From NCBI GenBank assembly GCA_045657645.1, contig JAZOTL010000021.1, forward strand, positions 1 to 36,561: a DNA stretch of 36,561 bases, given 5' to 3'. Of this stretch, positions 1,047-30,328 are shown piece after piece (within the stretch, counting starts at the first letter, position 1; every line of letters starts with the position of its first letter). The stretch comes from Eubacteriales bacterium. GTDB lineage: Bacteria > Bacillota > Clostridia > Oscillospirales > CAG-272. A program made the translations under genes and the position numbers. The notes beneath the pieces are model-generated. The model made no database searches. It saw only the letters and a list, made by a program, of their open reading frames with translations, and was not told the origin of the DNA.

Positions 1047-1047
1047 A

Positions 1048-1290
1048 TTAGATCTGGTCGTGGAAGGTACGGGAAATAACCTCGTCCTGCTGTTCCTTTG
1101 TGAGCTTTATGAAGTTTACTGCGTAACCGCTTACTCTTACGGTAAGCTGGGGATATCTTTCAGGGTGTGCCTGTGCATCAAGGAGAGTTTCCTTGGTGAA
1201 CACATTTACGTTAAGGTGGTGTCCGCCCTTCTGAACGTAACCGTCAAGAAGAGTTACCAGGTTATCTATCTGATTCTGTGTTGCCTTCAT
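1048..1290 (-). CDS. Stand-alone glycyl-radical domain protein (PFL C-terminal module, GrcA/YfiD-like)
   Basis: 80 aa. GGHHLNVNV...[23 protein letters not shown] is the PFL C-terminal glycyl-radical fingerprint. The ATG overlaps the upstream stop (TAATG), and GAGGAGG sits 7 nt upstream. Confidence 0.85.
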
Positions 1291-12694: not shown

Positions 12695-12740
12695 TTTAAT
12701 GTATACATATTTATATTATATAACCCCGAAAGGCAAAAGC

Positions 12741-13829: not shown

Positions 13830-13839
13830 GAGGTATTTT

Positions 13840-15153
13840 ATGACTAAAAGAACCATAGCTTACGTTTTGGGCGCACTGATATTGCTTTTTGCAATTCTGC
13901 CCCCTGTTTCTGCTTCCCTTGCCCTTGCTGTATGCCTTATCCCCATACTTGTTTTTGGCACGGAGCTTGCGTTAAGCTACACAAAGCAGGTTAAAAAGGG
14001 CAGATTTTTCTGCGAGGAGATATACATAATAATATCCGCCCTTGCTCTTTTGATCGGGGGCAACCCCGTGCAATCTGCACTTTTATTGCTCCTTGCTTCC
14101 ATTGCCTTTTTCTTTTTCAAAAAGGCGGCAAGGACCTCTGTTATACAGTCCGACCTTTACCTGCCCAAAAGAGCAGTGCTAAAGCACCCCGCAGGAGATA
14201 AGCTGATACTTACAAAGGAGATCGTACCCGGTAATATCATTGAGGTAAAAGAGGGAGATATAGTCCCCTGTGACGGTATTGTAATGTCGGGCGAGGGACT
14301 GCTTGACTACACCAACATCTACGGCCCCGGAGAGCCCTTTGCGGTAAAATTCCAAACCACCTGCCACGCAGGCGGAATACTCCAGCAGGGTAATATTACT
14401 GTCAAGTGCTCCCATCCTATAGAAAATTCATTATACGCAATGATAAATGCCCAATCAAAGAACAGATTGAAGGCATCTGCATACCACAGCTCGGTTAAAA
14501 CTATAGGCTTTATCTTTAAGCTCGCCTTTACTGCCCTTGCCATAGTGGCAACGGTTATATGCGGCATAGTTACAAAAAAGGCAGGTATGGCAATAAACTT
14601 CGGCACCGTTCTGCTGATAGGTGCATCCACTATTTCCTTGGAACGCCCCATAAACACCCTTTACCGTAACGCAATGACCTCGTTAGGTAAAAAGGGCGGT
14701 ATTATCAGCTCGGAAAGCGACCTTGAAGCTTTGGCACAGCTTAAAACCGTTTATCTTGCCCAGCCACCTGCGCAGGAAACCCTTGCACGGCTTGAAGAGC
14801 TCAGGCTTTCGGTGCTTAAAAAGGATATTGGACTTAACACAAACGCCGTATGCTTTACCGCTGAAAGAGAGCTTCGCAATTACAGAGGCAAAAGCCTGCC
14901 TGTTGCACTCGGCTTCTTTTCTCCAAAGGCAGGTGCAGTAATTACCGACGGAAACGTACAAAGGCTTGCAGGAGTGGTACGCTCGGCAAAGAATTTCAAA
15001 ATTCTTCTTACCCAAAATATTATTTGCACCATAACAGAAAAACTGCTTATTATATTACTGCTTTTCTGCGTAACAATTACCCCTGCCGCAGCATTGGTAA
15101 TTGAATTTGCACTTTGGATGCTTTGTATCCTTAACGCTTCCAGACTTGTTTGA
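13840..15153 (+). CDS. Degenerate P-type (P1B-like) ATPase homolog lacking catalytic motifs
   Basis: 437 aa. The actuator-domain-like core is VPGNIIEVKEGDIVPCDGIVMSGEGLLDY. However, TGES is replaced by YGPGEP, CPx by GASTISLERP and DKTGT by YLAQPPA, and there is no GDGxND hinge. Confidence 0.6.
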   Translation: MTKRTIAYVLGALILLFAILPPVSASLALAVCLIPILVFGTELALSYTKQVKKGRFFCEEIYIIISALALLIGGNPVQSALLLLLASIAFFFFKKAARTSVIQSDLYLPKRAVLKHPAGDKLILTKEIVPGNIIEVKEGDIVPCDGIVMSGEGLLDYTNIYGPGEPFAVKFQTTCHAGGILQQGNITVKCSHPIENSLYAMINAQSKNRLKASAYHSSVKTIGFIFKLAFTALAIVATVICGIVTKKAGMAINFGTVLLIGASTISLERPINTLYRNAMTSLGKKGGIISSESDLEALAQLKTVYLAQPPAQETLARLEELRLSVLKKDIGLNTNAVCFTAERELRNYRGKSLPVALGFFSPKAGAVITDGNVQRLAGVVRSAKNFKILLTQNIICTITEKLLIILLLFCVTITPAAALVIEFALWMLCILNASRLV

Positions 15154-16313
15154 TGAGTGAGGTAAGATTCTTGTTAAAACGACATAATTTTTATTATAAG
15201 CTTTTTAGACCTCTTGTAGTTCTCTTCTTAAAAATACGCTTTGGCTATAAGTTCCAGTATGCAAAGAACCTCCCGGATAACTACATAGTGCTTTCAAACC
15301 ACACCACCGACTACGATATGCTTTTCGTGGGTGCCTCATTTAAAAAGCAGATGTACTTTGTGGGAAGCGAGCATATTGCCCGCTGGAAAACCTTATATAA
15401 ATTCATAAAGCACGCCTTTGCACCCATAATGCGTTTAAAGGGTGCCTCTGCAACCTCGGCAATACTTGATATAAAGAGAAAAACCAAAAAGGGAGCTAAC
15501 GTATGTATGTTCCCGGAAGGTGTGCGCAGCTGGGACGGACGTACCTGCCCCATTCTTGAATCCACCGCACAGCTTGTTAAGTCTGCAGGCTGCGGTCTTG
15601 TTACCTACAGAATACAGGGCGGTTATTTTGCAAGCCCTATGTGGGGCGGAGCCTCGGTACGCCGGGGTAGAGTTTACGGCGCACCTGTAAGAGTGTTTAC
15701 AAAAGAGCAGCTTGCGCAGATGACCCCTGAGGAGATATATGAGGTAATAAAGACCGACCTTTGGGAGGATGCCTATGAGCGACAGGAAAGATCCCCTGAA
15801 AAGTACAAGAGTAAAACGGCGGCAGAGCACCTCGAAAATCTCCTGTTCGTTTGCCCCTACTGCCAAAGCAAAGATGGCATTTCTTCAAGCAAAGACAAGG
15901 TAAGCTGCAGTCATTGCGGCAACAGCTTTACATACAATCAATACGGTATGCTTGAGGGAGCGCCCTACACTACAGTAAGGGAACTTTCCGATTGGCAGAA
16001 GAAATGTATTGAACATGATGTTGAAAACAATACAGAATACAGCGCTTCAAACGCAAAGCTGATATCGGTAATAAAGCACCAGGAGACCCCCGTAACCGAG
16101 GGAAAACTGATAATTACTCCCCTTTTTCTCAAATGCGGCAATACCGAATTCCCACTTTCCGACATTACAGACCTTGCAATGCACGGCCAGCACGCAGTAG
16201 TATTTACCGTAGGCAAGCAATACTACGAGCTTAACGTTAACAAAGGGGAAAACGCCCTTAAATTTATGCTTTATTATAACCAAGCTATAAAACAAAAGAA
16301 CGGAGTACAATGA
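15153..16313 (+). CDS. PlsC-family lysophospholipid acyltransferase with a C-terminal zinc-ribbon extension
   Basis: The HX4D motif is NHTTDYD and the FPEGVRS motif is present. The C-terminal CPYCQS...CSHCGN is followed by a roughly 130-aa domain. The ATG at 15153 overlaps the upstream stop (TGATG); the ORF track begins at the TTG at 15150. Confidence 0.8.
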   Translation: MSEVRFLLKRHNFYYKLFRPLVVLFLKIRFGYKFQYAKNLPDNYIVLSNHTTDYDMLFVGASFKKQMYFVGSEHIARWKTLYKFIKHAFAPIMRLKGASATSAILDIKRKTKKGANVCMFPEGVRSWDGRTCPILESTAQLVKSAGCGLVTYRIQGGYFASPMWGGASVRRGRVYGAPVRVFTKEQLAQMTPEEIYEVIKTDLWEDAYERQERSPEKYKSKTAAEHLENLLFVCPYCQSKDGISSSKDKVSCSHCGNSFTYNQYGMLEGAPYTTVRELSDWQKKCIEHDVENNTEYSASNAKLISVIKHQETPVTEGKLIITPLFLKCGNTEFPLSDITDLAMHGQHAVVFTVGKQYYELNVNKGENALKFMLYYNQAIKQKNGVQ

Positions 16314-16314
16314 T

Positions 16315-17688
16315 ATGGATTTTTCAGCAGCTAATACAAACCTATGGAGTCCTGTAGTACAATTAGGTATTATAGCGGGCTTGATACTACTTGCAAACGT
16401 CCTTCGCCGCAAGGTGAAATTTATCAGTACAAGCCTATTGCCTACCGCGGTATTGGCAGGCTTTATTCTGCTTATACTGCGCACCACCAACATTATCAAA
16501 ATAGACACCAACTTTCTTGAGGGAATAACCTACCACGCAATAGCCCTTGGCTTTATTGCATTATCACTGCGTGTTCCCGAAAAGCAGAGCGAGTCAAGTG
16601 CGGCTATGGGCAGCAAAAGCGGGGCATTGATTGTAAGCACCTATCTTGTGCAGGCAATAGTAGGCCTTGTAATATCCCTCGTCCTTGCTTACACCTTTAT
16701 GCCAAACCTTTTTAAGGCAAGCGGAATACTCCTTCCTATGGCATACGGCCAGGGCCCCGGACAAGCAAACAACGTAGGTACCACCTACGAAGCCCTTGGT
16801 ATGACAGGCGGTCGTTGCTTTGGTCTTTCACTTGCGGCAGCGGGTTATCTGTGTGCCTGCGCTGTTGGAGTTGTGTATCTTAACGTACTCAACCGTAAAG
16901 GTAAAATAAACAGAAAATGCGGAAAAAGCGAGGTTTCGGGTTCTGTAACTTTAGATGAATTTCAGGACACAAACGAAATTCCCGTTGCCGAGTCTATAGA
17001 TAAATTCAGCGTACAGGCGGCTCTTGTTTCCCTTCTTTACCTGCTCACTTATCTTTTAACGTTAGGCATAACTACCCTGATTGAAAAATTTGCACCCGGA
17101 CTTGCAAACACAGTTGCGCCGCTGCTTTGGGGATTTAACTTCATTTTAGGTTCCCTTTTGGCGGTAATATGCAGAAGCTTGTTCAAACACCTGCGCCGTT
17201 ATAAAATAATGAACCGCCAGTATCAGAACAACTATCTGCTCAGCCGCATTTCGGGCGTAGCATTTGACTTTATGATAGTTGCGGGTATTGCAAGCATTAA
17301 TATTGAGGACCTTGCAGGTTACCTTGTACCCTTTATCCTTATGGCGGTACTCGGCGGTATTGCCACACATTACTATATCTACTACGTGTGCAAAAAATTA
17401 TATCCCGATTATTTCTACGAAGCTTATTTCTCTATGTTTGGTATGCTTACAGGTACCATAAGCTCCGGCGTACTGCTCCTTCGCGAGGTAGACCCCGAAC
17501 TTAAGACCCCGGCTTCAAACAATCTTGTAACCGGCAGTTCTTTCGGCATCGTGTTCGGTATGCCTATGCTGCTGATAGTAAGCTTTGCACCTAAAGGTAC
17601 TCTGGCCATACTCATTTCCCTTGGTTTAATATTTGTTTATTTACTGGCGCTGCTCTTCATTATGTTTAAACCAACAAAAAAGAAATGA
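16315..17688 (+). CDS. Polytopic membrane transporter, sodium/glutamate symporter (GltS/ESS)-like
   Basis: 457 aa with about 10-12 TM helices. The layout and glycine-rich re-entrant-like segments (AYGQGPGQAN; FGMLTGTISSG) resemble GltS. The start lies 1 nt after the upstream stop, with GGAG 9 nt upstream. Confidence 0.5.
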   Translation: MDFSAANTNLWSPVVQLGIIAGLILLANVLRRKVKFISTSLLPTAVLAGFILLILRTTNIIKIDTNFLEGITYHAIALGFIALSLRVPEKQSESSAAMGSKSGALIVSTYLVQAIVGLVISLVLAYTFMPNLFKASGILLPMAYGQGPGQANNVGTTYEALGMTGGRCFGLSLAAAGYLCACAVGVVYLNVLNRKGKINRKCGKSEVSGSVTLDEFQDTNEIPVAESIDKFSVQAALVSLLYLLTYLLTLGITTLIEKFAPGLANTVAPLLWGFNFILGSLLAVICRSLFKHLRRYKIMNRQYQNNYLLSRISGVAFDFMIVAGIASINIEDLAGYLVPFILMAVLGGIATHYYIYYVCKKLYPDYFYEAYFSMFGMLTGTISSGVLLLREVDPELKTPASNNLVTGSSFGIVFGMPMLLIVSFAPKGTLAILISLGLIFVYLLALLFIMFKPTKKK

Positions 17689-17855: not shown

Positions 17856-17882
17856 AGGCACGCTTCTAAATGAAGCGTGCCT
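17846..17882 (-). terminator. Rho-independent terminator of the seven-gene ABC operon
   Basis: An 11-bp stem pairs aggcacgcttc (17856-17866) with gaagcgtgcct (17872-17882). On the minus strand it is followed by gTTTTTTT. Confidence 0.8.
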
Positions 17883-17901: not shown

Positions 17902-18939
17902 TTAACCTACGATACCCGAACGCTCGATACCCTGAACCATAAACTTCTGACAGAAGAGGTAGATGATTATAAGGGGAGCAATTATAAGCATTGCGCCTGC
18001 GTTACGTACAGCAGCCTCGAACATAGAGGGCGCTACAGAAACGTCAAGGGAGTTAGGCAATGTAATAATACTGGGCATAAGCTGTGTTTTTGTACCAACA
18101 AAGAACAGCTTGGTGTAGAAGTTATCAGTCCACTGCCATGAGAAGGAGAACAGGAATACTGTTATCATCATAGGAACTGACAGGGGAATGATTATCTTAA
18201 TGAAGGTCTCAAAGGGTCCGTAACCGTCAAGGTAAGCAGACTCTTCAAGCTCATCGGGAACGCCGCGGAAATACTGGCGCATCATAAACACATACAAACC
18301 GTTCTTAAAGCCAAGACCTGTGAGTGAGAGCAATGCCAAAGGCCAGAAGGTGTTAAGCATATTGGTTTTGGGAATGGGAATGATGTTAAACACATTCAAT
18401 ACTCCCAACCAGTCAAACTCTTTAAATCTCATAAACATTGAGAACTGTATGGTCTTATGAGGTACGATCATTGTAAGTATAACAAGCGCGAAGAATAATC
18501 CGGAGCCCTTAAACTTAAACTTTGCAAAGCCGTAACCGATAGTAGAGCATATAAAGGTCTGGAGAATACCGCAGCCTATTGAAAGGAGCAGGGTGTTAAA
18601 CAGTGCCGAGAAATATGCATTATCCTTGATAACAGCTTTATAGGTATCAAGGGTAGGATATCTGGGAACAAGCTTTACTGTTGCGTCTATAAAGTCCTTA
18701 CCACTCATAAATGATGAGGATATCTTTGTAAAGAAGGGCATCAGTATTACATATGAAATACCGAGAAGCAGGAGGAATCTTGCAAGCTTCCAGAGCATTT
18801 CTGCAGCGAAGCTTGTCTGGAGATACTTAAGTTTAAAGCGTGTACCTGCAGAGGTACGGTCAAACTCAACGCGTATCTTGTTTTTGGTCTCCTTAGTAAC
18901 CTTAGGAGCGGCATTAGGTGTGTTGTGTACGTTATCCAT
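17902..18939 (-). CDS. Carbohydrate ABC transporter permease (MalG-type), pair 2
   Basis: 345 aa with 6 TM helices and the EAA loop ESAYLDGYGPFETFIKIIIPLSVP. It has a long cytoplasmic N-terminal extension. Confidence 0.85.
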   Translation of the reverse strand: MDNVHNTPNAAPKVTKETKNKIRVEFDRTSAGTRFKLKYLQTSFAAEMLWKLARFLLLLGISYVILMPFFTKISSSFMSGKDFIDATVKLVPRYPTLDTYKAVIKDNAYFSALFNTLLLSIGCGILQTFICSTIGYGFAKFKFKGSGLFFALVILTMIVPHKTIQFSMFMRFKEFDWLGVLNVFNIIPIPKTNMLNTFWPLALLSLTGLGFKNGLYVFMMRQYFRGVPDELEESAYLDGYGPFETFIKIIIPLSVPMMITVFLFSFSWQWTDNFYTKLFFVGTKTQLMPSIITLPNSLDVSVAPSMFEAAVRNAGAMLIIAPLIIIYLFCQKFMVQGIERSGIVG

Positions 18940-18951
18940 TTTTACCCCTCC

Positions 18952-19917
18952 TTAATCTCTTCTCTGATAGAATATGTAAACCGAAAGAATACCTGATACA
19001 GCAGCTATTATTGCAATAACTATGAGGAAGTATATCCACGCCATTGCAGAGGAAAGCTCCTGTCCGCCCGCGCTGTTGTATACGCTTGAAATATAGCGCA
19101 TAACAGTATTGGTAGATGAGGTAAACGCATCGATTACCGTGTAGATGGCATTAACCAAAATCATAGGGCTTACCATAGGAATGGTTATCTTCCAGAAAGA
19201 CTCCCAGCCGGATGCACCGTCGATGTTACAGGACTCGTATATCGCAGGGGATATAGACTGAAGACCTGCAAGGAAGATAAGCATCTGAACGCCTGAACGG
19301 TTAATGATATCGTAAATGTTGTTCATTATGTTTACAACGTAGGTGGTAAGCTCTGTACCAACCTTCATTGAATTAAACATCCACTGTATATCGGTTGCAG
19401 CTACGATGCTGTTTACAGCATCGGAACCGCTACCGGTATCTATAGAAGACGTTGTATCCGACATATATGCGGAAAGTGAGTTGGAGGAGTCTATTTCTCC
19501 AATAAGACCGGTACACAGTATAACGGGAATAAAGAATATTGCACGGAATACTGCGCGGCCGAACATCTTTTGGTTAAGAAGCACCGCCATAAACAGCGAG
19601 AATATAACAATTGCAGGGATATCAAAGAGCAAGCTCTTGATACCTGTTACAAGTGTCTGGTTAAACTCGGGGTCTACGGTAAGAGCCTCAGTATAGTTTG
19701 CCAAACCAACGAATTTAAGTGCATATCCGCCCTCGGGATGAATACTTACGTCAGAAAAACTGAAGTGTATGGAGTTAACTATGATGGGGGCGTATATGAA
19801 GAAAAGACCGATTAAGAAGGGAAGAATAAATAACCAACCGCTTCTTGCCTTGCGGGCATCAAGTGATGCTATCTTTGCTCTGCTCTTTTTAGGAGCTGAT
19901 TTAACTGCATTATTCAC
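18952..19917 (-). CDS. Carbohydrate ABC transporter permease (MalF-type), pair 2
   Basis: 321 aa with the EAA loop ESCNIDGASGWESFWKITIPMVSP. A large extracytoplasmic loop lies between TM3 and TM4. Confidence 0.85.
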   Translation of the reverse strand: MNNAVKSAPKKSRAKIASLDARKARSGWLFILPFLIGLFFIYAPIIVNSIHFSFSDVSIHPEGGYALKFVGLANYTEALTVDPEFNQTLVTGIKSLLFDIPAIVIFSLFMAVLLNQKMFGRAVFRAIFFIPVILCTGLIGEIDSSNSLSAYMSDTTSSIDTGSGSDAVNSIVAATDIQWMFNSMKVGTELTTYVVNIMNNIYDIINRSGVQMLIFLAGLQSISPAIYESCNIDGASGWESFWKITIPMVSPMILVNAIYTVIDAFTSSTNTVMRYISSVYNSAGGQELSSAMAWIYFLIVIAIIAAVSGILSVYIFYQRRD

Positions 19918-19933
19918 TTTATTCTTCCTCCTT

Positions 19934-22900
19934 TCAGCCTATTCTTACGTAGTCAAGAGCTTCTATAGTATAACCCTCAACTGTTACATCATATCTGTTG
20001 TAGTTAAGTATAAACTGTGTACCGTTTTCATATGTTACGCGAACCAAGGTTCCGTCGGTAACAGCGTACTTAACGTTTACAGCAGCAATTGCCTCTTCTT
20101 CGGTAAGGCCTGCCTTTACATACTCGGCAACTGTCATCTTATCAGCTTCAAGCTCTGCTGCTTCAGCCACACGAACACCGGAAAGGAACTCGTGGTTTAC
20201 AATAGCGCTTGCGCGAAGATCCTTTGTTACCTCGTTAAGCTCGGTATATATTTCTACCAGGTCTTCAAACCAGATATCGTATTCAACCGAGTAGTATTTA
20301 GCAAGGTCCTTATCATCCTTAAGCAAAGGAGTGTTCTGGTATGAAAGTGTGAAGTAGAGATCGGAACCGTTCTCTATCATCTTAAGCTTTTCATATCCGC
20401 TGTCGCTTGCCATATTTGTAGGATCGCCTGCAAAATCAACAAATCCGTGAAGCACCAAGCCCATAAAGGGAACCGAGCGGTTTGCCTTTGTATAGTGGCT
20501 GGAGTCAAGGGGTGCGTTGAGGATAACGTCAGCATACTTCCAGGTGAAGGCGTTACCGCCGTCTACCATAACGCTGTCATAATCCTTATTTGCAGTTTCA
20601 AGCAGATTAGATACTACAGACTTACTATCCTCTCTGTCATAGAAATCATCGTCATCAAAGTCGGAATTAAGATCGGTACCCAAAGTAGAAAGGGAGATGC
20701 CGCTCTTACCAAGCTTTGTGAGATCCTCGGTCACCTTATCATAGAAACCGGGGAATGCAGCGGGAGATACGTTTACAAGACCTGTGGTCATTGACTGCTG
20801 ATAGGAGCTGTAGTAACGGCGCTGTGTGGTATATCTTTCGTCGATAGCCTTAGCAGCATCGTTCTTTGCCTTGTAGCCGTCAAAGGATTCGTCCTTTCCT
20901 ACGTAGGAAAGATCGAATTCAGGATAAAGGGTAATTCCCTTTTCCTTTGCGTATTTAACGAATTCGGTATAGCCCTTATCGCCGCCTACTGCCTTTTCAA
21001 AGCTTGCCTCGGTGGGAACACCGGGCTTCATACCGCCGTTAACAAAGCCTGTAAGGCGGAAGTTTACGTTGTTTATACCCTTTTCGTTAAGCTCACCACT
21101 CATAGTCTTCAAATCCTCGAAGGTGGTGAGAGCTTCGTATACTGTTACGGGAACGGAAAGGAAGGTACCGTCTGTTTCAACAGCACCGAAGGATTCGATA
21201 TAAAGAGGAATATCCTTTTCATTCTCTTCCTTTTGTACAAGAACTTCCTTTTCTATAAGGTAGTCACGGTAAGCCTTTGCCATACCCATATAGCTTACGG
21301 GGTAATACTCGGCAATGCCGTTTTCCTCAGCCTTTGCCTTATCGGTAAGCATTACTATACGCATACGGTAGCTACCGGTATACTTGTTATCAGCAAAGAT
21401 TGTAAGGTCTGTATCATCACCTACTGCAACTGCGTCCGAAAGGTTATAGGTATCGGATGCCTTGGGGCTGTATTCTGCGTATACAGAATTATATCTGTGC
21501 TGTGTACCGCCGCTTGCAGCGATGAGGGATGCCATAGAGTCACCCTCTTCAATAATAGCAAGGAAGCCTCTATCCATTGTTACGGGGGTATAGGATTCTG
21601 CTACTGTTTCTTCGTGAGCGGGGATAACGTTTCCTTCCTCGTCAACAGATTCGGGAATTAATTTTGTGGAAACTACGGCAGACTGACCGGCATAGTGTTC
21701 AACAACACCGTATACGGGCATTCTGAGAGTTTCGGTCTTAAGTGCACCGGAGGCTATTTCGTGATATGCATAGTCCTCACCGTACATCTTTCTCTTAATG
21801 TTAAGGGATGTACCCTTGAGCTGCTGGAAATCGAACAGCGCGCCGCTACCGTCGGGGTAGAAGCTGTAACCGCCGCCTGCCTGCTCGTTAGAGCCTGCAC
21901 CCAGATAAGGAAGCACCTTTACAGAGGTAAGGGTGTATTCGTCCTCATCATAACGGATGCTGTTTGCAGGAAGACGAATGGAAAGTCCGTTTTCGTCAAG
22001 GATATATTCCAGTGCCATCTTAAACAGCGGAGGAGCCTTCTTTACCGATGTGTAACCGGTCATAGAATGGTCTTCTTCAAGGGCTGCAAAGTTGTACTTG
22101 GGGCAGTGCTCCTTGATAATATCCTCAACCTCTCCGATAGATCTGTCGCTTTCATCAGAGCTTGTATCGAATACGTATATAGCCATCTTTTCAGCTATAG
22201 GATACTGCTGCTGATACTTTTCACGAACCGAATCCTGGAGCTTTTCGTCATTAAGGTCTATAAGGGTATAGTAGCTGGCAATCTTATTTGCCTGGAATCC
22301 GGAAGCGATATTGTTAAGTATCTGCTCCTCAAAGCGGGATTTTTCTATAAGCATAGGAACAAGGTATCTTGTTTCCTCTTCACCAATAGAATACTCTACT
22401 CTTATACCGTTTTTAAGGCCCTTAAATCTTATCTGTGATTTGATAGCTGCATCATAACAGCTGTTCATGCTCTTATCAGCGCCGGAGGAATCAACGTAAG
22501 TGATAAGAAGCTGGGAGATAAGCTGCTGCTTTATCTCTTCGGAGGAAGCGCTGGATGCAAGGTCATAGGGATTTGTGAAAAGCACCTCACCTGTTGCAAC
22601 GTTCTTTAACGCCACCTCGCCTGTGCCTGCACTGTAATAAAGCTGATAGCCGTAAGCTTCATACTTCATTTCCATATTTGCAAGCTTTTCCTCTATTGAA
22701 CCGTATACAGCGTCGGGTGCAAGGTAGTTTTTGAAGAAAATATCCTCAGGCTTTACCTTGCCGTCCTCTTCTTCGGAATCGGCATCTTCTGCGTTTTCCT
22801 CTGTATCGGTGATCTCTGCGTCATCTGTACCCACTGTAGTATCTACATCTTCTTCATCTGCAAATACCGCAAGGCTAAATGAACCTAAAACCATCATTAT

Positions 22901-22948
22901 GGCAAGGATCAGAGATAAAAATCTTTTTGTGATATTCAGTTTGTTCAT
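19934..22948 (-). CDS. Large secreted protein of unknown function (possibly the family databases label DUF5696; glycosidase-like by inference)
   Basis: 1004 aa. The signal peptide (...GSFSLAVFADEED) is followed by an acidic linker. I recognised no catalytic motif. The DUF5696 assignment is from memory of gene neighbourhoods and is unverified. Confidence 0.5.
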   Translation of the reverse strand: MNKLNITKRFLSLILAIMMVLGSFSLAVFADEEDVDTTVGTDDAEITDTEENAEDADSEEEDGKVKPEDIFFKNYLAPDAVYGSIEEKLANMEMKYEAYGYQLYYSAGTGEVALKNVATGEVLFTNPYDLASSASSEEIKQQLISQLLITYVDSSGADKSMNSCYDAAIKSQIRFKGLKNGIRVEYSIGEEETRYLVPMLIEKSRFEEQILNNIASGFQANKIASYYTLIDLNDEKLQDSVREKYQQQYPIAEKMAIYVFDTSSDESDRSIGEVEDIIKEHCPKYNFAALEEDHSMTGYTSVKKAPPLFKMALEYILDENGLSIRLPANSIRYDEDEYTLTSVKVLPYLGAGSNEQAGGGYSFYPDGSGALFDFQQLKGTSLNIKRKMYGEDYAYHEIASGALKTETLRMPVYGVVEHYAGQSAVVSTKLIPESVDEEGNVIPAHEETVAESYTPVTMDRGFLAIIEEGDSMASLIAASGGTQHRYNSVYAEYSPKASDTYNLSDAVAVGDDTDLTIFADNKYTGSYRMRIVMLTDKAKAEENGIAEYYPVSYMGMAKAYRDYLIEKEVLVQKEENEKDIPLYIESFGAVETDGTFLSVPVTVYEALTTFEDLKTMSGELNEKGINNVNFRLTGFVNGGMKPGVPTEASFEKAVGGDKGYTEFVKYAKEKGITLYPEFDLSYVGKDESFDGYKAKNDAAKAIDERYTTQRRYYSSYQQSMTTGLVNVSPAAFPGFYDKVTEDLTKLGKSGISLSTLGTDLNSDFDDDDFYDREDSKSVVSNLLETANKDYDSVMVDGGNAFTWKYADVILNAPLDSSHYTKANRSVPFMGLVLHGFVDFAGDPTNMASDSGYEKLKMIENGSDLYFTLSYQNTPLLKDDKDLAKYYSVEYDIWFEDLVEIYTELNEVTKDLRASAIVNHEFLSGVRVAEAAELEADKMTVAEYVKAGLTEEEAIAAVNVKYAVTDGTLVRVTYENGTQFILNYNRYDVTVEGYTIEALDYVRIG

Positions 22949-22969
22949 TTTATCTTACCTCCTTGCCTA

Positions 22970-25123
22970 CTACATTCTAAATGAAATTTCCGTTACTATA
23001 CTTGTAACAAATCCTACTATCTTCTGGAGAAGACCTGTAAAGAGAAGTCCTATGAACATTATAAATGCCACACCAACTATTGTTCCAAGACAAGTTACCA
23101 CGTTAACACCAAGGGAATAACCGTGTGTCACGAGCATTCCAAAGAATACCATTATAGCAACCCACGCCCAAGCAATGGTAACTAAGAGAGAAACAAGGCC
23201 GGCCTCGTTAAGAGAGAAAATGTGAGTAAGAAGAACGGAAGGTATTACAAGCAGGGGCAGGGGCGCAAGTGAATAGCCTACTGCTATATATACGTCCTTG
23301 TAGCTGCCTTCACCATCACAAAGAGTGGTAAGACACCAGTTAGCGGTAACCCAAAGGAATACCGGCATTACAATGGAAACTGCCTGTACAAATACAGAGC
23401 TTGTTATACCTGTGGGGTTAAACAGATAAGCCTGACCAACTGCCTGATATGTAAATGCAAGAGCTGCAAGTACAAGCCAGAAGGTAGCACCGCGTACCGA
23501 ACCACGTTTTTCGTGCTTCAGATCCCAGAAGCCGTCAAAGGGATGGCCGAACAGATGGAATGCATACAGCACTTCTTCCTTGAAGGAACGTCTGCCGCTC
23601 TTGAGGATAGCGCCGTCGTTTACCTTGTTTACCCATTTAAAGAACTTGGAAAGAACAAATACTATTGCGATAACCGCTACGGGAACAACAAGCACGTACT
23701 TTGATATCCATTCCTTACGGTATTCCTGGAACGCCTTGGAATATCCATCGGTATCATATGCATACTTGTAATACTCCATAGCATCCTCCCACTGACCGCT
23801 GCGGTAGTATGCGTTACCGATACCAACGTAAGCGGCGTCAAAGTTACCGTTTCTCTGGAGTATCTTTTCCCAGTCCTCAACTGCGGCGTCATAATTACGC
23901 TCGTTATCGTTATGGAGCGCATTTATAAGGATGTCGCCGTATTCGGTTCTCTCGTAAACTGTGATATTGGTAGATAAGCCCTTATCAAGAAGCAAGAGCT
24001 TTGAGCCCTGATACGTAAGAGCCTCTGCTGTTTCGATGTTACCAAGCATTTCGCCCTTATCACCGAAAACAAACAGCAATCTTCCGTATGCATCATAGGT
24101 GTATACCTTGGAACGCTTTTCATCAAGGATGGACCAGGTTCCCTCTTCACCCATAGCAACGTCGATTATCTTGGAAGCACCGGTGATAACGTTGTCGTCC
24201 TTGGAATCCCAGATTACAGAAACCTCACCGCCGGGGCCGAAGAAGCCGCTTCGTGCCATTACGTCATCACCTGAAGAGTTAAGCTTCTTTACAGGTGAGT
24301 GAGCACTGCTCTTGCCTTCAATTGCAGCCTGCTGGTCAGCTTCTGCAATGTTGGAGCTTGTAACGAATACAAAGCCCTCTTCGTCGATTGTAATATTGTT
24401 ATACTCTGTAGAAAGGTAGGAAGCAGTCTGTGCTCTCTGTTCAGCAGTCATAAACTGGAGCCAGATAAGCTCTGCAGCGTTTACAGAAACCTGCTGTGCA
24501 CCCAGATAACACTGGAAGCTTCCGTCTTCCTTAAGAACTATAACACCTTCGTATGTTGTAGAAGATACGATATACATATTGCCTATGCTGTCAACTGCAA
24601 GAGCAACAGGCTTATAGATAGAGTCGGAACGCATAATATCTGCGCTGGGCTCTTCAACTATGTGGTGGAAATTACCCAAACGGTCAAAAACAACGATACG
24701 GCTGTTCTCGGTATCTGCAACATAGATGAACTGCTCTGTTACATACATACCGCTGGGGCTTTCAAGAGAGTCCGGAACTCCCTGGTCATTGTAGAAGCTC
24801 ATACCGAACTCAAGCTTGAACTTGTAATACTTATCAAGCATTAAGATACGGTTGTTTCCACGGTCAACGATATAAACGTTTTCCTCTTTATCGGTAACCA
24901 TATCAGCGGGGTCGTTGAGTGTGTCAAGACCGCTGGGGGCTGCCGCAAGGTTCATATCTGCCGGTGTTACCTGCCTGTCCGGGGTATATCCATCGGGGGA
25001 ATCCACAGGGAAACCATCGATGGAATATGTGTAGGACTTATATGCTGCTGCATAGCTGGAAAATGAGCCCAGCAGCATAATAAAGCACATGAGGACAGTG
25101 ATAAATGAAATAAATCTCTTCAT
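22970..25123 (-). CDS. NHL-repeat beta-propeller / TPR / Yip1-domain membrane protein
   Basis: 717 aa. After the signal peptide come about 6 NHL-like blades (YIVDRGNNRILMLD; YVADTENSRIVVFDRLGNF; MYIVSS...GVIVL). These are followed by TPR-like helices (GIGNAYYRSGQWEDAMEYYKYAY), one TM helix, and a 5-TM Yip1-like C-terminus. Confidence 0.7.
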   Translation of the reverse strand: MKRFISFITVLMCFIMLLGSFSSYAAAYKSYTYSIDGFPVDSPDGYTPDRQVTPADMNLAAAPSGLDTLNDPADMVTDKEENVYIVDRGNNRILMLDKYYKFKLEFGMSFYNDQGVPDSLESPSGMYVTEQFIYVADTENSRIVVFDRLGNFHHIVEEPSADIMRSDSIYKPVALAVDSIGNMYIVSSTTYEGVIVLKEDGSFQCYLGAQQVSVNAAELIWLQFMTAEQRAQTASYLSTEYNNITIDEEGFVFVTSSNIAEADQQAAIEGKSSAHSPVKKLNSSGDDVMARSGFFGPGGEVSVIWDSKDDNVITGASKIIDVAMGEEGTWSILDEKRSKVYTYDAYGRLLFVFGDKGEMLGNIETAEALTYQGSKLLLLDKGLSTNITVYERTEYGDILINALHNDNERNYDAAVEDWEKILQRNGNFDAAYVGIGNAYYRSGQWEDAMEYYKYAYDTDGYSKAFQEYRKEWISKYVLVVPVAVIAIVFVLSKFFKWVNKVNDGAILKSGRRSFKEEVLYAFHLFGHPFDGFWDLKHEKRGSVRGATFWLVLAALAFTYQAVGQAYLFNPTGITSSVFVQAVSIVMPVFLWVTANWCLTTLCDGEGSYKDVYIAVGYSLAPLPLLVIPSVLLTHIFSLNEAGLVSLLVTIAWAWVAIMVFFGMLVTHGYSLGVNVVTCLGTIVGVAFIMFIGLLFTGLLQKIVGFVTSIVTEISFRM

Positions 25124-25141
25124 TATATATTACTAACCTCC

Positions 25142-26023
25142 TTAGTCCTTCATACCCGAAGAAGCCATTGTTTCAACGATCTGGCTCTGGTTAACAACGA
25201 ATACGATTATCGGTACGCTCATCATAAGCACGGAACCTGCTGTTGCCGCACCAACGCTTGTACCTGCCGCTGCTGTGATCTGTGCAACCGCAGAGTTAAA
25301 GGTTTTGAGCTGTTCACTCCATACGTATACGGAAGCACCTGCGTTCCATACCTGCTGGAATGTTGTAACTATAAGGGTAAGCCATGCGGGCTTTACCAGG
25401 GGCATCGCTATCTTCCAATATATATAAAGCTCCTTTGCGCCGTCGATACGCGCTGCCTCGATCATCTCATCGGAAATACCGTCATCGATAAAGTTCTTCA
25501 TAAGGTAAAGACCAAGGGTGGATGCCCATACGGGAAGAATTGAGATGGAGTAGGTGTTAAGCATACCTACCTTACAGTAGATGATGAAGTTATATGTACC
25601 TGTAATGGTAGAACCTATCATCAGGGAGTAAACTATAAGGTCGTTCATCCACTTGTAACCGGGCATACGGATCTTGGAAAGAGCGTATGCGGTCATGGAA
25701 CCGAAAAGCAGGGCACCAAAGGTAGATGCTACCGAGATATATACTGTATTGAAGATATATCTGGAGATAGGAACCCAGGTCTGGTTCATATTGGTGAACA
25801 GGTCGATATAGTTTTTGAAGGTGGGCTTCATTACGTAGAACTTAGGGGGTGTGATGGAAAGCTCACCAAGGGGTTTAAAGGATGTAATGAGTGCGTTGTA
25901 CATAGGAAGGAACATAAGCACGCCCAGGACAACCAGCATTACTGTAATAGCTGTATCGCCGCCAACGGAACGGTTAAGTACGACCTTATGTTTTCTGACA
26001 CGTAATCTTTTTTCTCTTGCCAT
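25142..26023 (-). CDS. Carbohydrate ABC transporter permease (MalG-type), pair 1
   Basis: 293 aa with the EAA loop EAARIDGAKELYIYWKIAMPLVKP. Its start lies 1 nt after the upstream stop. Confidence 0.88.
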   Translation of the reverse strand: MAREKRLRVRKHKVVLNRSVGGDTAITVMLVVLGVLMFLPMYNALITSFKPLGELSITPPKFYVMKPTFKNYIDLFTNMNQTWVPISRYIFNTVYISVASTFGALLFGSMTAYALSKIRMPGYKWMNDLIVYSLMIGSTITGTYNFIIYCKVGMLNTYSISILPVWASTLGLYLMKNFIDDGISDEMIEAARIDGAKELYIYWKIAMPLVKPAWLTLIVTTFQQVWNAGASVYVWSEQLKTFNSAVAQITAAAGTSVGAATAGSVLMMSVPIIVFVVNQSQIVETMASSGMKD

Positions 26024-26024
26024 A

Positions 26025-26996
26025 CTACTGTCCCACCTTTGCCAACATTTTGTTTATAAGCTTATTTGCACCGAAGCACAGAATAAACATTACAAGTGCG
26101 ATAGCCGAAGCATAACCAAACTCAAAACGAGTGGTCATATACTCTGCAAGGTGATGATTAAGTGTCCATGCACAGTAGTTTACCGAAGGGGTACCGCAAA
26201 GCTGAGTTACGATAGTACCGAAACTGAAGGCACTGGTAATAGACATTACCGCACCGAACATCAGCATAGATTTCATATTGGGAAGTGTGATAAACCACAC
26301 CTCCTGCCATCTGTTTTTAATTCCGTCAACCGCGCCTGCCTCGTACTGGCTTCTGTCGATAGCCTGAAGACCTGCGATAAATGACAGGAAGGACATACCC
26401 AAGCTGGTCCAGATGGAAATAAAGATCATCAGGGGTACGATATAGGTTTCATCCTGGAACCAAAGTATAGGCTCTGTGATAAGACCAAGCTTCATCATCC
26501 AACCGTTTGCGTATCCGTAGATATCATTTTTAAATATAAGCTGGAAGATGGGCACAGCACCGCCGGAAATACCGGGGGCATAGAATATAAATGTAACTAA
26601 TGCACGAAGCTTCGGAGGAAGCTCGTTAATAAACCAAGCGAGTATAAAACTCAAGAGGAAGGATGCGGGACCTGTGGTTACAGCGAATATAAGTGTATTC
26701 TTTAAAGCTGTTATAAACAGGTCGTCATCCAAAAACATTCTGATAAAGTTATCAAATCCGATGAACTGCGGCCAGGTAAACATATCAAAGGATGTAAAGC
26801 CCAGCAGTATGGAAAGGATAACCGGCAGCACGGTGAAGATGCAGAACATTATCATAAAGGGAGCGATCATAAAGTAACCGGCTCTTGTTCTCTTCATCTC
26901 ACTGCGTGTGTACTGCCATTTAGTCATATCTTTTTTTGAGATAGGCTCTTTAGACTTTCTCGGCTTGGTACTCTTTTTTACAGCAGTATCTTGCAT
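26025..26996 (-). CDS. Carbohydrate ABC transporter permease (MalF-type), pair 1
   Basis: 323 aa with the EAA loop EAGAVDGIKNRWQEVWFITLPNMKS. Confidence 0.88.
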   Translation of the reverse strand: MQDTAVKKSTKPRKSKEPISKKDMTKWQYTRSEMKRTRAGYFMIAPFMIMFCIFTVLPVILSILLGFTSFDMFTWPQFIGFDNFIRMFLDDDLFITALKNTLIFAVTTGPASFLLSFILAWFINELPPKLRALVTFIFYAPGISGGAVPIFQLIFKNDIYGYANGWMMKLGLITEPILWFQDETYIVPLMIFISIWTSLGMSFLSFIAGLQAIDRSQYEAGAVDGIKNRWQEVWFITLPNMKSMLMFGAVMSITSAFSFGTIVTQLCGTPSVNYCAWTLNHHLAEYMTTRFEFGYASAIALVMFILCFGANKLINKMLAKVGQ

Positions 26997-27039
26997 GAGT
27001 AAATTCTCCTTCTTTACTTATTTTTCAGATGAATTACTG

Positions 27040-30000
27040 TCAGTCTTCCTTTTGACCGGACTTATCGTCCTTATCATAGGAAATCTCGTTGTAGTCCAAA
27101 CCGAATTCTTTACGCTTACGCGTTAATTCCTTATTCATATAGGATATCTGCTCAAGCATTGCATCAGCAGGGTTCTGTCCGTCGTTATACGCATTAAGGA
27201 AAGCAAACTGTACGTACTGGGTAAGAATGTAGGAACCGGGATATTCGGGAACTGCATCTACCTGCCCAAGCATTGATGCTATAGCAGCGCGCTCCTGCTC
27301 GGTCCACTTCTGTGCCAGAAGTACCTGTGTATTCGCGGTAGAGAACTTATTTGTAGGCATTGTAACCGCAATATTTTCTCTTGCCTGTCTTTGCTGAGAA
27401 TCAGCACCGCAGTACCACTTGATGTATTCCCAAGCAGCTTCGGGATCCTCACCGCCACGGGGGATGATCATTGCCTGAGTATTTACTGTTGCGGTACGGT
27501 TGATACTTCCGTCCTCACGAACGGTACCGATTGCGGGAGCCATCTGCCACAAGCCTCTTATATCATAGAATGCCATAAGCTGGTTGTAGGTTGTAATAGC
27601 GTCCTCGGCTACCATTATGGGAACCTCACCTGTACGGAAACGGGTTATATCATAAGCTACGGGGCAGCTGTACTTCTGGAACATTTCGCACATTGTTTTG
27701 AATGCAGAAAGTGAAACCTTATCGTCAAGGTTTACTGCCTTACCGTTATCCTTGTACATATTTCCGCCCTCCTGCTGATATACAAAGAGCTGTGTACCAA
27801 CAAGACCGTTAGGCAAGCCAACGTCCATATTATTATTAAGAAGTGCGGGCATACAAGCAAGCAGCTCGTCCCAGGACTGGGGTGCCTCAATACCAAGCTC
27901 TGCAAGTACGTCAAGTCTGTAGAAGGTCATAGGAACTATGATGTTGGTAGGTACACCGTAGGTATGCCAGTTGTCCGGGTCGTTTTTACCAACCATAGTC
28001 AGCTTATCCTTAAGGGGCGCCGGGTACTGGGCCATAACTTCATCAAAGCCCTCGTAATTTTCAAGGGGAAGAAGTGCAGTACGCATACCAAACGTGATGG
28101 TATTTGCCGAATCCATAAAGGAAACGTCAGGACCAATGCCTGCCAGTATCGCCTCGGTAAGACCCGCGGTAATAACCTTGATTCGTAGGCTTATGCCGGA
28201 ATCGGGTGTAAAGTAGTTATCCACCAGATATCTGTATATAAGCATAGACTCACGGTCGGATATCGCCCACATTTCAATTTCGCGCTTTGTAGTGGTGTTA
28301 GCATCATCAGAGAAACCGATTGTGGTATAGTCCATTGTGAAGCTGGCAACAAAGGCCTTGCACTCAAACCACGCCTTTTCAAAGCCGTTTGATACGGCAC
28401 GGGGCAGCTTTGCATCTGCTGCGGCAAATACAAAGAAGTCAAGCTTAAGGGGCTGTGCCAGTGCTGAATATAACCAGTCACTAAGTGAAATTATATAGTT
28501 TTTAAACGTCAGGAAGTTGGGGGCTATTTCGTATTCGTTAAGCGCCATCTTTTCATAGAGCTCCGCTATCGTGTGAAGGGTGTTTGTCATATCGCCCTTC
28601 TCGCCTGTCATTTCGACAATGGATTCCTCTATGTCATACAGCTCGTTTGCTGCATTTGCTATTGTAACAATATGCTCGGGAACAAGTCTCTGGAAGCCGT
28701 AGTCACGGTTGGAGTCCGGCACGGGACCTGTTATCTTAAGCATTTCCTGATATGCAAAGTTAAGGTCGTTGATAAGCTCCTTGATACGGTAAACGTACTG
28801 CTCCATATCGCCAAGCACTATCTCCAGCTCAACAACGTTTGTTCCCTTTTCAAGGTAGAACAGGTATGTATCTTCACCGTTGGTAGCGTAAGAGCTCTGG
28901 AAGCCTGTTTCAAAGGGGAAACGCAGGTAGCTTGCTTCGCGGAACTGTATCTCGTTGTTTATCTTCACACGTCTTGAAGTAAACATACCGATCTGTGTGT
29001 TCTGACGGAAGCGGAATGAAAGTGAGTAAAGTCCTGTTTCGGGAGCTTCTACCTCATACTTCATCCAGTTGTTCGCAGTTGCGTTATCAAGAAGATTATA
29101 TCTGATCTGCGCGGGATGCTGGGGAATACTGATGGAAGATGTTCTGTCATTACTGGGAATAACGTTCTGTACGGAAACGCTTGTGGGGTTCTCCGCCTGT
29201 ACGATTATTCTTTCGTCACCTGTGTATTCCTTAACGCCCTTCTTCTTCATCTCCTTGAGGAAATCCTCGTAGCTTATTTCCTCTTCGTAAGGATAGAAGC
29301 GCAGGGAGTGTATTACCATCTGCTCGCGGTTGGAAGTAAGGGTTATGGTGTGCTCGCCCTCGGTAAAATATACCTGGAGGGGGTCGATCTCGTAACCCAG
29401 CCAGTCACGCATATAGTAGGTCTGCCATTCGGGCACCTCCCAACGGCGGGGACGGGTATCGTTACCGTTCTTGTCGTTGATGAAGGACTTGGTTTCTACC
29501 TTTTCCTTGCCGTCCTCAAAGTATACGGTGCTTTCAAGGAGCACCTCTTCACCGTTTTTATCGGTTTCATACTCATACTCCCAGGTACGGGGGAAGTAAA
29601 GATATCTTGCTTCAGAGAAGGGCATTTCGCCGTCCACGTACATCATACGCTCGATGGTGGTGGATATCTCGGTTGCATCGGTATCGTCCACAACAACGGA
29701 TGCGTATGTAAGTTCGATAGCGTATCTGCCTTCTGCGGGTACGTCTATCTTGAGTACGGTATTACCGGAATCGGGGGTAACAAGAACCTTATCGGTTATG
29801 CTGCCGTCACCGTAAACGGAACCGTCTTCAATAGTGGACTTTACTGTGGAAGCCGCATCGTCATATGCATCTGCCGCATATACGATAAACTCCTCCTCCT
29901 TGTAGTCCTTGCCTTCGTGGAGCTTTGTGTACTCATCGTAGGACACAGCGTTACCAAGCTTAAGAATGGCCTCTGCATCATACTCGAAGACATAATCATC

Positions 30001-30135
30001 CGCAGCGCCTGTAATATCTGTGCCTGCTGCGGGCTCGTTTTCATCTGCGAATACGCCGGTGGTCAGTGACAGGCTGCCCATAAGCATTATTACCGCCAAT
30101 AAAAACGACAGGATTCTTTTGATCCCATGCTTCAT
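27040..30135 (-). CDS. Giant extracellular solute-binding protein with two N-terminal CBM-like beta-sandwich modules
   Basis: 1031 aa. The signal peptide has no lipobox Cys. Two related modules share the pattern P..G.Y...L.......V....F.EA.YL.FP. A helical linker is followed by a C-terminal family-1 SBP fold (YGVPTNIIVPMTFYRLDVLAELGIEAPQSWDELL). Confidence 0.75.
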   Translation of the reverse strand: MKHGIKRILSFLLAVIMLMGSLSLTTGVFADENEPAAGTDITGAADDYVFEYDAEAILKLGNAVSYDEYTKLHEGKDYKEEEFIVYAADAYDDAASTVKSTIEDGSVYGDGSITDKVLVTPDSGNTVLKIDVPAEGRYAIELTYASVVVDDTDATEISTTIERMMYVDGEMPFSEARYLYFPRTWEYEYETDKNGEEVLLESTVYFEDGKEKVETKSFINDKNGNDTRPRRWEVPEWQTYYMRDWLGYEIDPLQVYFTEGEHTITLTSNREQMVIHSLRFYPYEEEISYEDFLKEMKKKGVKEYTGDERIIVQAENPTSVSVQNVIPSNDRTSSISIPQHPAQIRYNLLDNATANNWMKYEVEAPETGLYSLSFRFRQNTQIGMFTSRRVKINNEIQFREASYLRFPFETGFQSSYATNGEDTYLFYLEKGTNVVELEIVLGDMEQYVYRIKELINDLNFAYQEMLKITGPVPDSNRDYGFQRLVPEHIVTIANAANELYDIEESIVEMTGEKGDMTNTLHTIAELYEKMALNEYEIAPNFLTFKNYIISLSDWLYSALAQPLKLDFFVFAAADAKLPRAVSNGFEKAWFECKAFVASFTMDYTTIGFSDDANTTTKREIEMWAISDRESMLIYRYLVDNYFTPDSGISLRIKVITAGLTEAILAGIGPDVSFMDSANTITFGMRTALLPLENYEGFDEVMAQYPAPLKDKLTMVGKNDPDNWHTYGVPTNIIVPMTFYRLDVLAELGIEAPQSWDELLACMPALLNNNMDVGLPNGLVGTQLFVYQQEGGNMYKDNGKAVNLDDKVSLSAFKTMCEMFQKYSCPVAYDITRFRTGEVPIMVAEDAITTYNQLMAFYDIRGLWQMAPAIGTVREDGSINRTATVNTQAMIIPRGGEDPEAAWEYIKWYCGADSQQRQARENIAVTMPTNKFSTANTQVLLAQKWTEQERAAIASMLGQVDAVPEYPGSYILTQYVQFAFLNAYNDGQNPADAMLEQISYMNKELTRKRKEFGLDYNEISYDKDDKSGQKED

Positions 30136-30218
30136 TTTTTCTACCTCCTAACGGAATGCTTGTCAATGTAAGAAAACCTCTAAAAGAGGACGACAAACCC
30201 GACGGGTACCCCGATTTT

Positions 30219-30249
30219 AAAAAAATCAGGCACCCGCCAAGCAGGGTGC
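30219..30249 (-). terminator. Terminator-like hairpin inside the 5' leader of the ABC operon (candidate attenuator)
   Basis: On the minus strand it reads gcacccTgc-ttg-gcgggtgc (30249 down to 30230), then ctga and T7 (30225 down to 30219). It sits about 45-75 nt downstream of the predicted -10 and about 85 nt upstream of the ATG. Confidence 0.4.
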
Positions 30250-30299
30250 GCACATCAGTTGAAATATGCACAATTTTCTTTCATTTTTTACTGTATAAT

Positions 30300-30328
30300 A
30301 TAATACCACGGCTGCCTTTAAATGTCAA
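30300..30328 (-). promoter_or_regulatory. SigA-type promoter of the seven-gene ABC operon
   Basis: On the minus strand it reads TTGACA (30328 down to 30323), a 17-nt spacer, then TATTAT (30305 down to 30300), with a TGn extended -10 (gTGgTATTAT). Confidence 0.6.

Follow-up and report, generated by a model that had tools for sequence, protein, structure and literature searches.

The 36,561-nucleotide stretch of DNA considered here (the window hereafter; contig JAZOTL010000021.1 of assembly GCA_045657645.1, from a Eubacteriales bacterium of the Oscillospirales lineage CAG-272) carries on its minus strand a seven-gene operon. In order of transcription, it encodes a 1031-amino acid (aa) solute-binding protein (SBP), two ATP-binding cassette (ABC) permeases (P1 and P2), a 717-aa membrane protein with NHL, TPR and Yip1 domains, a secreted 1004-aa protein of the DUF5696 family and a second pair of permeases (P3 and P4). 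The same seven genes recur in the same order in a broad range of related loci, in many Firmicutes of gut and soil, and are made up of two evolutionary units, one comprising the binding protein, P1 and P2 and the other the Yip1 protein, the DUF5696 protein, P3 and P4. We propose, with a probability of roughly 55%, that the cassette is a two-module ABC system of the carbohydrate uptake transporter 1 (CUT1) type for the capture, trimming and import of extracellular glycans.

Conservation of the cassette

Strong homologs of the DUF5696 protein number more than 1,200 in a clustered database, and a DUF5696 profile search returned 5,636 clusters at 50% identity. When one genome was scanned for each species, at least 584 species proved to have a relative, and the best 80 are all represented by metagenome-assembled genomes (MAGs) of gut or rumen Clostridia. 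Comparison of the seven window proteins with the fetched loci by tblastn recovered the order SBP-P1-P2-Yip1-DUF5696-P3-P4, on one strand, in every locus with enough sequence. All seven genes are present in 71 loci, the window included, and order and strand are identical in each of them. The order is also kept in distant loci found via the binding protein (L084-L089, L091 and L092), down to 24% identity; the distant carriers include Paenibacillus sp. LHD-117, two Ruminiclostridium-like loci and a Bacilli MAG. The recurrence in Paenibacillus and Clostridia that the initial annotation of this DNA had mentioned is thus verified by the fetched loci, and the gene order is not unique to the window genome. 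Its suggestion of a composite operon for glycan import, conserved yet uncharacterised, is supported. The searchable literature contains no mention of DUF5696 or PF18952, nor of a system that combines Yip1, a binding protein and a glycosidase in this way.

The identical order and strand in every related locus exclude chance adjacency. The view that the two transporters and the two large genes are unrelated and merely lie side by side, or are transcribed as separate units, could draw on a second promoter-like site (10/12 matches) inside the Yip1 gene and on hairpins within the open reading frames (ORFs), which are terminator-like but weak. This is nevertheless very improbable in view of the 71/71 conservation down to 24% binding-protein identity, of intergenic gaps of only 43, 1, 18, 21, 16 and 12 nt between the seven ORFs, and of the position of the sole strong terminator after the last gene. 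Accordingly, the seven genes are a real operon. Among 608 clustered flanking ORFs no consistently linked eighth gene was found, the recurrent neighbours reflecting lineage synteny only (NifS, NifU and a ROK kinase). One complete cassette of the clostridial type (L021) lies on a contig binned with an archaeal MAG (Methanocorpusculum sp. isolate RGIG8706), a placement that is most likely a binning error.

Two co-varying blocks

Alignments and pairwise distance matrices were made for each protein of the 71 complete cassettes and the matrices were correlated with one another, partial correlations being those that remain once the shared background is removed. Within the group formed by Yip1, DUF5696, P3 and P4, raw correlations are 0.94-0.97 and partial correlations 0.63-0.81, and within the group formed by the SBP, P1 and P2 the corresponding values are 0.89-0.91 and 0.48-0.65; between the two groups, raw correlations are 0.74-0.89 and partial correlations range from -0.59 to 0.17. 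This split is the best of the 35 possible 3+4 partitions, and it is stable when the distant loci or the clade of the window are left out and under random halving. The pattern is one of blocks and shows no decay with distance, i.e., the neighbours P2 and Yip1 are uncorrelated and Yip1 and P4, which lie 5 kb apart, are correlated. The operon therefore consists of two evolutionary units, and the binding protein groups with P1-P2, not with P3-P4. Such a pattern fits either the co-adaptation of partners or the exchange of blocks at a breakpoint between P2 and Yip1.

The co-variation bears directly on the model put forward in the initial annotation, in which both translocons are supplied by one receptor that bears a carbohydrate-binding module (CBM), the Yip1 protein is a general scaffold and the processing enzyme is the DUF5696 protein. 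The operon does hold a single solute-binding fold and its seven genes are strictly co-inherited, as that model would have it; however, the binding protein co-varies with P1 and P2 only, its partial correlations with P3 and P4 are -0.50 and -0.59, and P3 and P4 co-vary with the Yip1 and DUF5696 proteins. In addition, P1 and P3 are 26% identical and P2 and P4 20%, which makes a docking surface shared by the two pairs unlikely. The claim that one receptor serves both translocons was thus not borne out, and we consider the model as a whole unlikely. The same low identities indicate that the permease pairs are old paralogues and not the product of a recent duplication.

Permeases and binding protein

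All four permeases score above the Pfam cut-off for BPD_transp_1 and have a readable EAA loop, and their best NCBIfam matches are UgpA/MalF for P1 and P3 and UgpE/MalG/GlcU for P2 and P4, in agreement with the early description of two MalF/MalG-type pairs with intact EAA loops. P3 has a long loop between its third and fourth transmembrane (TM) segments that is rich in Ser, Thr and Asp. Only one SBP is encoded in the operon, as had been noted from the outset: the Pfam SBP_bac_1/8 signal lies in the 1031-aa protein, where it is confined to residues 648-930. In the AlphaFold2 (AF2) model of this protein (pLDDT 86.7), the predicted signal peptide is followed by an acidic linker that is disordered; then come two beta-sandwiches, at residues 80-285 and 305-440, and a helical bundle (442-560) that leads into a MalE-like domain (560-1010). 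In Foldseek, the model comes closest to 9xf5, a cycloisomaltooligosaccharide-binding protein (E=3.5e-17), with MalE and GacH ranking next, and the C-terminal half aligns with these three structures with TM-scores of 0.75-0.79; 9xf5 is also reached by sequence search (E=1.5e-9).

The protein had initially been described as a fusion of a CBM and an SBP. Pfam and Foldseek uphold the SBP fold, but every match to a CBM is below threshold: the N-terminal region of the window protein matches only Golvesin_C in Pfam (E=0.013), with no match above the gathering score, and in homologs, of a set of eight family members that were scanned, CBM_35 or Golvesin_C reach 12-28 bits, under the cut-offs of 28 and 31.6. 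The recurrence of these weak matches among homologs, together with the two predicted beta-sandwiches, makes a CBM plausible, although not established. Across the 71 loci, the binding protein is the fastest-evolving component of the cassette (mean p-distance 0.53, compared with 0.33 for P1/P2), which fits a common platform with variable specificity.

The DUF5696 protein

The AF2 model of the DUF5696 protein (pLDDT 82.7, pTM 0.81) predicts an N-terminal beta-sandwich and a (beta/alpha)8 barrel, a fold that resembles those of glycoside hydrolase (GH) families GH129 and GH101. Foldseek matched the model to the GH129 structures 5opq (E=3e-26, TM-score to target 0.66) and 5wzp (E=4e-19, TM-score to target 0.73), to GH101 entries at E of about 1e-13 and, more weakly, to GH36 entries. 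At the sequence level, single-sequence searches of PDB and NCBIfam returned nothing usable, and the sole PDB match of a profile of 52 DUF5696 sequences was the GH129 enzyme NagBb, at an insignificant E of 1.2. On sequence, the protein therefore cannot be filed in GH129 or GH101.

The strongest motif of the family, G-T/S-D-L-N-S-D-F, contains the stretch LNSDF encoded at 20657-20671 on the minus strand, which includes Asp763. This residue is invariant in the 52 close homologs and kept in four of five distant copies, the fifth (L088) having His, and it stands directly after the predicted strand beta-4, the usual position of the nucleophile in GH13-like barrels. Asp763 is therefore a candidate nucleophile. 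An acidic residue at position 796 (Asp or Glu) follows beta-5 and is kept in the close family only; it was weighed as the acid/base on its spacing and strand position, and was downgraded because three of the five distant copies have Ser or Leu in its place. Compared with the retaining alpha-glycosidases of GH129 (NagBb, ZgGH129) and GH101 (EngBF, SpGH101), the DUF5696 protein shares the predicted fold and an Asp after beta-4, whereas it is about 350 residues longer, is without significant sequence similarity to them, has a variable acid/base candidate and occurs in cassettes whose contexts include beta-glucan-type loci. On the strength of the predicted fold and the motif, catalysis is likely, and the initial reading of the 1004-aa protein as an extracellular processing enzyme is plausible.

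Alternatively, the DUF5696 protein might have a glycosidase fold without being an enzyme and act as a binding or "lid" protein, taking the place of an SBP for P3-P4 jointly with the NHL propeller. The second block has no solute-binding fold of its own, its Yip1 and DUF5696 genes take the place before the permeases that an SBP gene usually occupies and co-vary closely with P3/P4, and the distant copies do not conserve the acid/base candidate and, in L088, have His for Asp763. Set against this, the top motif of the family lies where a nucleophile is canonically found and does not vary among the 52 close homologs, and the fold relatives are all active hydrolases; we consider this alternative unlikely.

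The size of the protein varies. In six loci (L047, L058, L064, L068, L078 and L081), an additional 1-2.6 kb separates the DUF5696 match from P3, and many members of the family measure 1,200-2,500 aa, so that long C-terminal extensions are frequent.

The NHL-TPR-Yip1 protein and the anchoring of secreted components

The domain calls made initially for the 717-aa protein and for the secreted 1004-aa protein are confirmed by Pfam. The former begins with a signal peptide and an NHL beta-propeller (residues ~60-400); a TPR region (408-460) and a TM helix (477-495) follow, and last comes a Yip1 domain (524-691, encoded at 23051-23554) that holds hydrophobic segments in the hydropathy profile. NHL (40.2 bits) and Yip1 (PF04893; 40.6 bits against a cut-off of 28.6) both pass their thresholds, and sequence matches in PDB are to the sensor propeller of PknD and to TPRs. 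More than 2300 homologs have the same NHL-TPR-Yip1 architecture, and in four distant loci (L085, L088, L091 and L092) it is divided between two adjoining genes, one for NHL/TPR and one for Yip1. The database call of this protein (P0227, 706 aa) begins 11 codons after the first ATG (window 25091-25123); the 717-aa start is the more likely one, judging from homologs of 710-717 aa that align over their full length.

A Yip1 protein has been linked to ABC transport before, since YknW, the one bacterial Yip1 protein that has been studied, is an accessory of the YknWXYZ ABC exporter of Bacillus and modulates assembly of the complex (PMC4887032). The initial statement that Yip1 proteins have no established role in ABC import consequently stands for importers, for which there is no precedent, but needs qualification given that this exporter provides a precedent for an ABC accessory (PMC4887032). 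In both cases, a Yip1 membrane protein is encoded with an ABC transporter (PMC4887032). In contrast, YknW is partnered by an exporter of the MacB type together with a membrane fusion protein. Here the partners are permeases of the type I importer kind, and the Yip1 domain has an extracellular NHL propeller and TPRs either fused to it or, in the four distant loci, encoded next to it. Neither an FtsX/MacB permease nor a membrane fusion protein was found in the operon or in its relatives.

Similar signal peptides and acidic linkers are present in the binding protein and in the DUF5696 protein and are family-wide traits, and neither signal peptide has a lipobox Cys (the binding protein reads LMGS, the DUF5696 protein VLGS), all of which agrees with the first reading of the sequence. 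A lipobox-like Cys is rare among homologs, at 5 of 52 for the DUF5696 protein and 5 of 58 for the binding protein. Nor do the two proteins carry a sortase signal or any further anchor, which is true of both families. Retention of the secreted proteins at the cell surface would thus need another route. The N-termini encoded at 30061-30135, 25048-25123 and 22873-22948 have L-x-G-S at the point where a few homologs have a Cys (VSAC, IAGC), and in these three signal peptides the motif looks like a lipobox minus its Cys.

ATPases and regulators

No importer-type ATPase and no regulator are encoded within the 36.5-kb window. The initial annotation had noted this absence, which holds for the window but not for several of its relatives. 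In two close relatives (L001 and L007), an ATPase of the UgpC/MalK (MsmK) type lies ~1.5 kb upstream, beyond the same YfbR-like neighbour as in the window. In two distant loci (L085 and L091), two different ATPase genes, encoding products of 233-244 aa and 317-320 aa, lie directly upstream of the binding-protein gene and overlap each other in L091; these ATPases are nearest to the LolD/MacB type, i.e., they are exporter-like although they stand beside type I importer permeases. The longer of the two carries a C-terminal extension of ~90 residues (L085 8032-9765, L091 8249-9921). In two further distant loci (L084 and L092), a dCache histidine kinase and a response regulator of the AraC type are encoded along with an additional small binding protein, which is the usual arrangement for sugar sensing. 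The absence of an ATPase and a regulator is thus a trait of this lineage and not of the system.

Measured against CUT1 importers (TC 3.A.1.1) that share an MsmK/MsmX ATPase, the cassette has the same MalF/MalG pairs, the same MalE-like domain and, likewise, no ATPase in the operon. It departs from them in having four permease genes instead of two, two large extra proteins that are always present, a binding protein that lacks a lipid anchor and exceeds theirs by ~600 residues and, in one distant subfamily, two LolD/MacB-like ATPase genes instead of a shared ATPase.

Carbohydrate context and substrate

Several relatives of the cassette are found among genes of carbohydrate metabolism. One locus holds two GH123 genes, a fucosidase (GH29) and a two-component system; another holds GH16 and GH36; a third NAGPA, NanE and GHL10; a fourth GH3, two GH16 and GH94; and a fifth a two-component system with the small binding protein. 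SASA and a CHAP/lysozyme protein also occur in the flanks of relatives. Two substrates were considered and set aside, namely a galacto-configured alpha-glycoside, as suggested by the fold relatives of the DUF5696 protein, and an alpha-glucan, as suggested by the relatives of the binding domain. In both cases the likeness is too weak (10-20% identity), and the neighbouring carbohydrate-active enzymes (CAZymes) vary by lineage.

A further possibility is that the system does not forage but recycles, remodels or senses a glycopolymer of the cell's own envelope. In gut Clostridia, the cassette stands among housekeeping genes, with no other CAZyme and no regulator, and the promoter is near-consensus; wall-related neighbours (NAGPA, SASA, the CHAP/lysozyme protein) accompany it in some relatives. 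Yet other relatives lie in loci typical of foraging, with two-component systems that sense sugars and with enzymes of the GH16/GH3/GH94 or GH123/GH29 families, and the binding protein is the component that evolves fastest (p-distance 0.53), as would be expected for varied external substrates. We therefore regard an envelope role as rather improbable.

The cassette invites comparison with the starch utilization system (Sus)-like systems and with the polysaccharide utilization loci (PULs) of Gram-positive bacteria, the latter being usually defined by the combination of an enzyme, a transporter and a regulator. The likeness is one of analogy only: glycan binding at the surface, a surface enzyme with an amylase-like barrel and a transporter are brought together, and the cassette lies beside varied CAZymes. 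In contrast to Sus, there is no homology to SusC or SusD, and ABC permeases act at a single membrane; in contrast to a Gram-positive PUL, the window holds no regulator.

Organization of the operon and its surroundings

The seven same-strand genes, with the gaps given above, were borne out by the ORF listing, and both the near-consensus promoter upstream and the strong terminator downstream were found where the initial annotation had placed them (Table 1). The promoter (30328-30300) is the top-scoring minus-strand site upstream of the first gene, although promoter-like sites show no excess across the region (25 observed, 25.8 in shuffled sequences). The terminator (17882-17856) is bidirectional and common to the operon and to the convergent plus-strand genes.

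Table 1. Position of the genes and transcription signals of the operon in the window.
Feature	Position	Strand	Description	Evidence
Binding-protein gene	27040..30135	-	1031-aa product	
Permease P1	26025..26996	-	MalF/UgpA type; six predicted TM segments, EAA loop	Pfam, NCBIfam, hydropathy
Permease P2	25142..26023	-	MalG/UgpE type; EAA loop	Pfam, NCBIfam
NHL-TPR-Yip1 gene	22970..25123	-	717-aa membrane protein	Pfam
DUF5696 gene	19934..22948	-	Secreted 1004-aa product	Pfam E=4e-151
Permease P3	18952..19917	-	MalF/UgpA type; EAA loop	Pfam, NCBIfam
Permease P4	17902..18939	-	MalG/UgpE type; EAA loop	Pfam, NCBIfam
Promoter, sigma-70 type	30300..30328	-	TTGACA-17-TATTAT, upstream TG	11/12 matches
Structured 5' leader	30136..30293	-	~158 nt, start inferred; terminator-like hairpin 30249-30230 and U-run	
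Intrinsic terminator	17856..17882	-	11-bp stem, 7 G-C pairs, T-run	

The transcript would begin with a structured leader whose predicted fold, at -55.5 kcal/mol, is markedly more stable than that of shuffled sequences (-36.6 +/- 3.7; z = -5.1), and whose terminator-like hairpin overlaps a longer alternative hairpin. The leader may act as an attenuator, although its conservation in relatives is weak: three relatives (L001, L004 and L007) have a hairpin at the equivalent position, with z-scores that are not significant. In these relatives the hairpin keeps a GCCCGUUGGGU-like 3' arm. A scan of the leader against Rfam matched no family, and a search of the promoter and leader for catabolite-responsive element (cre) sites found none.

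The flanking genes have no link to transport; they include a YfbR-like HD protein, RlmA, DUF362, GH2 and oxidoreductase/acyltransferase genes. A plus-strand run of four genes (12699-17688) converges on the operon terminator and encodes a GFO/IDH/MocA oxidoreductase, an acyltransferase, a 437-aa protein with only the actuator-type domain of E1-E2 ATPases and a 457-aa hydrophobic protein without a match in Pfam or NCBIfam. Farther away, at 285-3398 and 6160-7872, are genes for a glycyl-radical enzyme similar to pyruvate formate-lyase (PFL) with its radical-SAM activase and for an SLH-anchored GH18 protein; together with SpoIIE (3676-6081), they point to a host that is a spore-forming Firmicute with an S-layer.

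Proposed mechanism and implications

In the two-module system that we favor, the first module (the binding protein, P1 and P2) would be a canonical importer with an enlarged, unanchored receptor, the MalE-like domain of which would pass oligosaccharides to P1-P2. The second module (the NHL-TPR-Yip1 protein, the DUF5696 protein, P3 and P4) would be a second translocon that evolved with two accessory proteins. The propeller and TPRs of the 717-aa protein would face outward and its Yip1 domain would lie in the membrane, from where it could retain the anchorless secreted proteins and couple them to P3-P4. The DUF5696 protein would cut the captured glycan, and the products would pass through one or both translocons, energized by an ATPase encoded elsewhere (an MsmK in close relatives, two dedicated ATPases in one distant subfamily).

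Several observations weigh against this reading. The co-variation could stem from a recombination breakpoint between P2 and Yip1 instead of physical partnership, and the likeness of the DUF5696 protein to GH129 and GH101 is at the level of the fold, at 10-13% identity, with the acid/base candidate Asp/Glu796 replaced in three of five distant copies and Asp763 by His in L088. If the signal peptides stay uncleaved, they might themselves serve as anchors, and a dock would be needless. The flanks of the cassette in gut Clostridia are housekeeping genes (NifS/NifU, tRNA synthetase, carbamoyl-phosphate synthase) and most of these loci are without a neighbouring CAZyme; where CAZymes are present, they vary so strongly among lineages that no substrate can be named.

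A bolder form of the two-module proposal, which we put forward only tentatively and hold to be less likely than not, is that the second module represents a new class of ABC importer without a classical SBP. Capture or cleavage of the polymer would then fall to a glycosidase-fold protein docked at the membrane and to a propeller-Yip1 subunit, and the product would be fed directly into a dedicated translocon. On this reading, the cassette would be a general glycan-uptake platform of the Firmicutes that is Sus-like in its logic, and bacterial Yip1 domains would act as coupling subunits for ABC transporters in general, importers and exporters alike.

The cassette departs from CUT1 glycan loci in four respects: its permeases are doubled, its binding protein is giant and unanchored, its ATPase and regulator are absent or unusual, and two accessory proteins with no described role in import are obligatory. 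The capture and import of glycans by single-membrane gut Firmicutes is much less understood than the Sus paradigm of the Bacteroidota. Paenibacillus sp. LHD-117, a cultured carrier of the cassette, makes the proposal directly testable. If the second module works in the manner proposed, it would be a new way of coupling an extracellular enzyme to an ABC translocon, and it would provide the first defined roles in import for bacterial Yip1 domains and for DUF5696.

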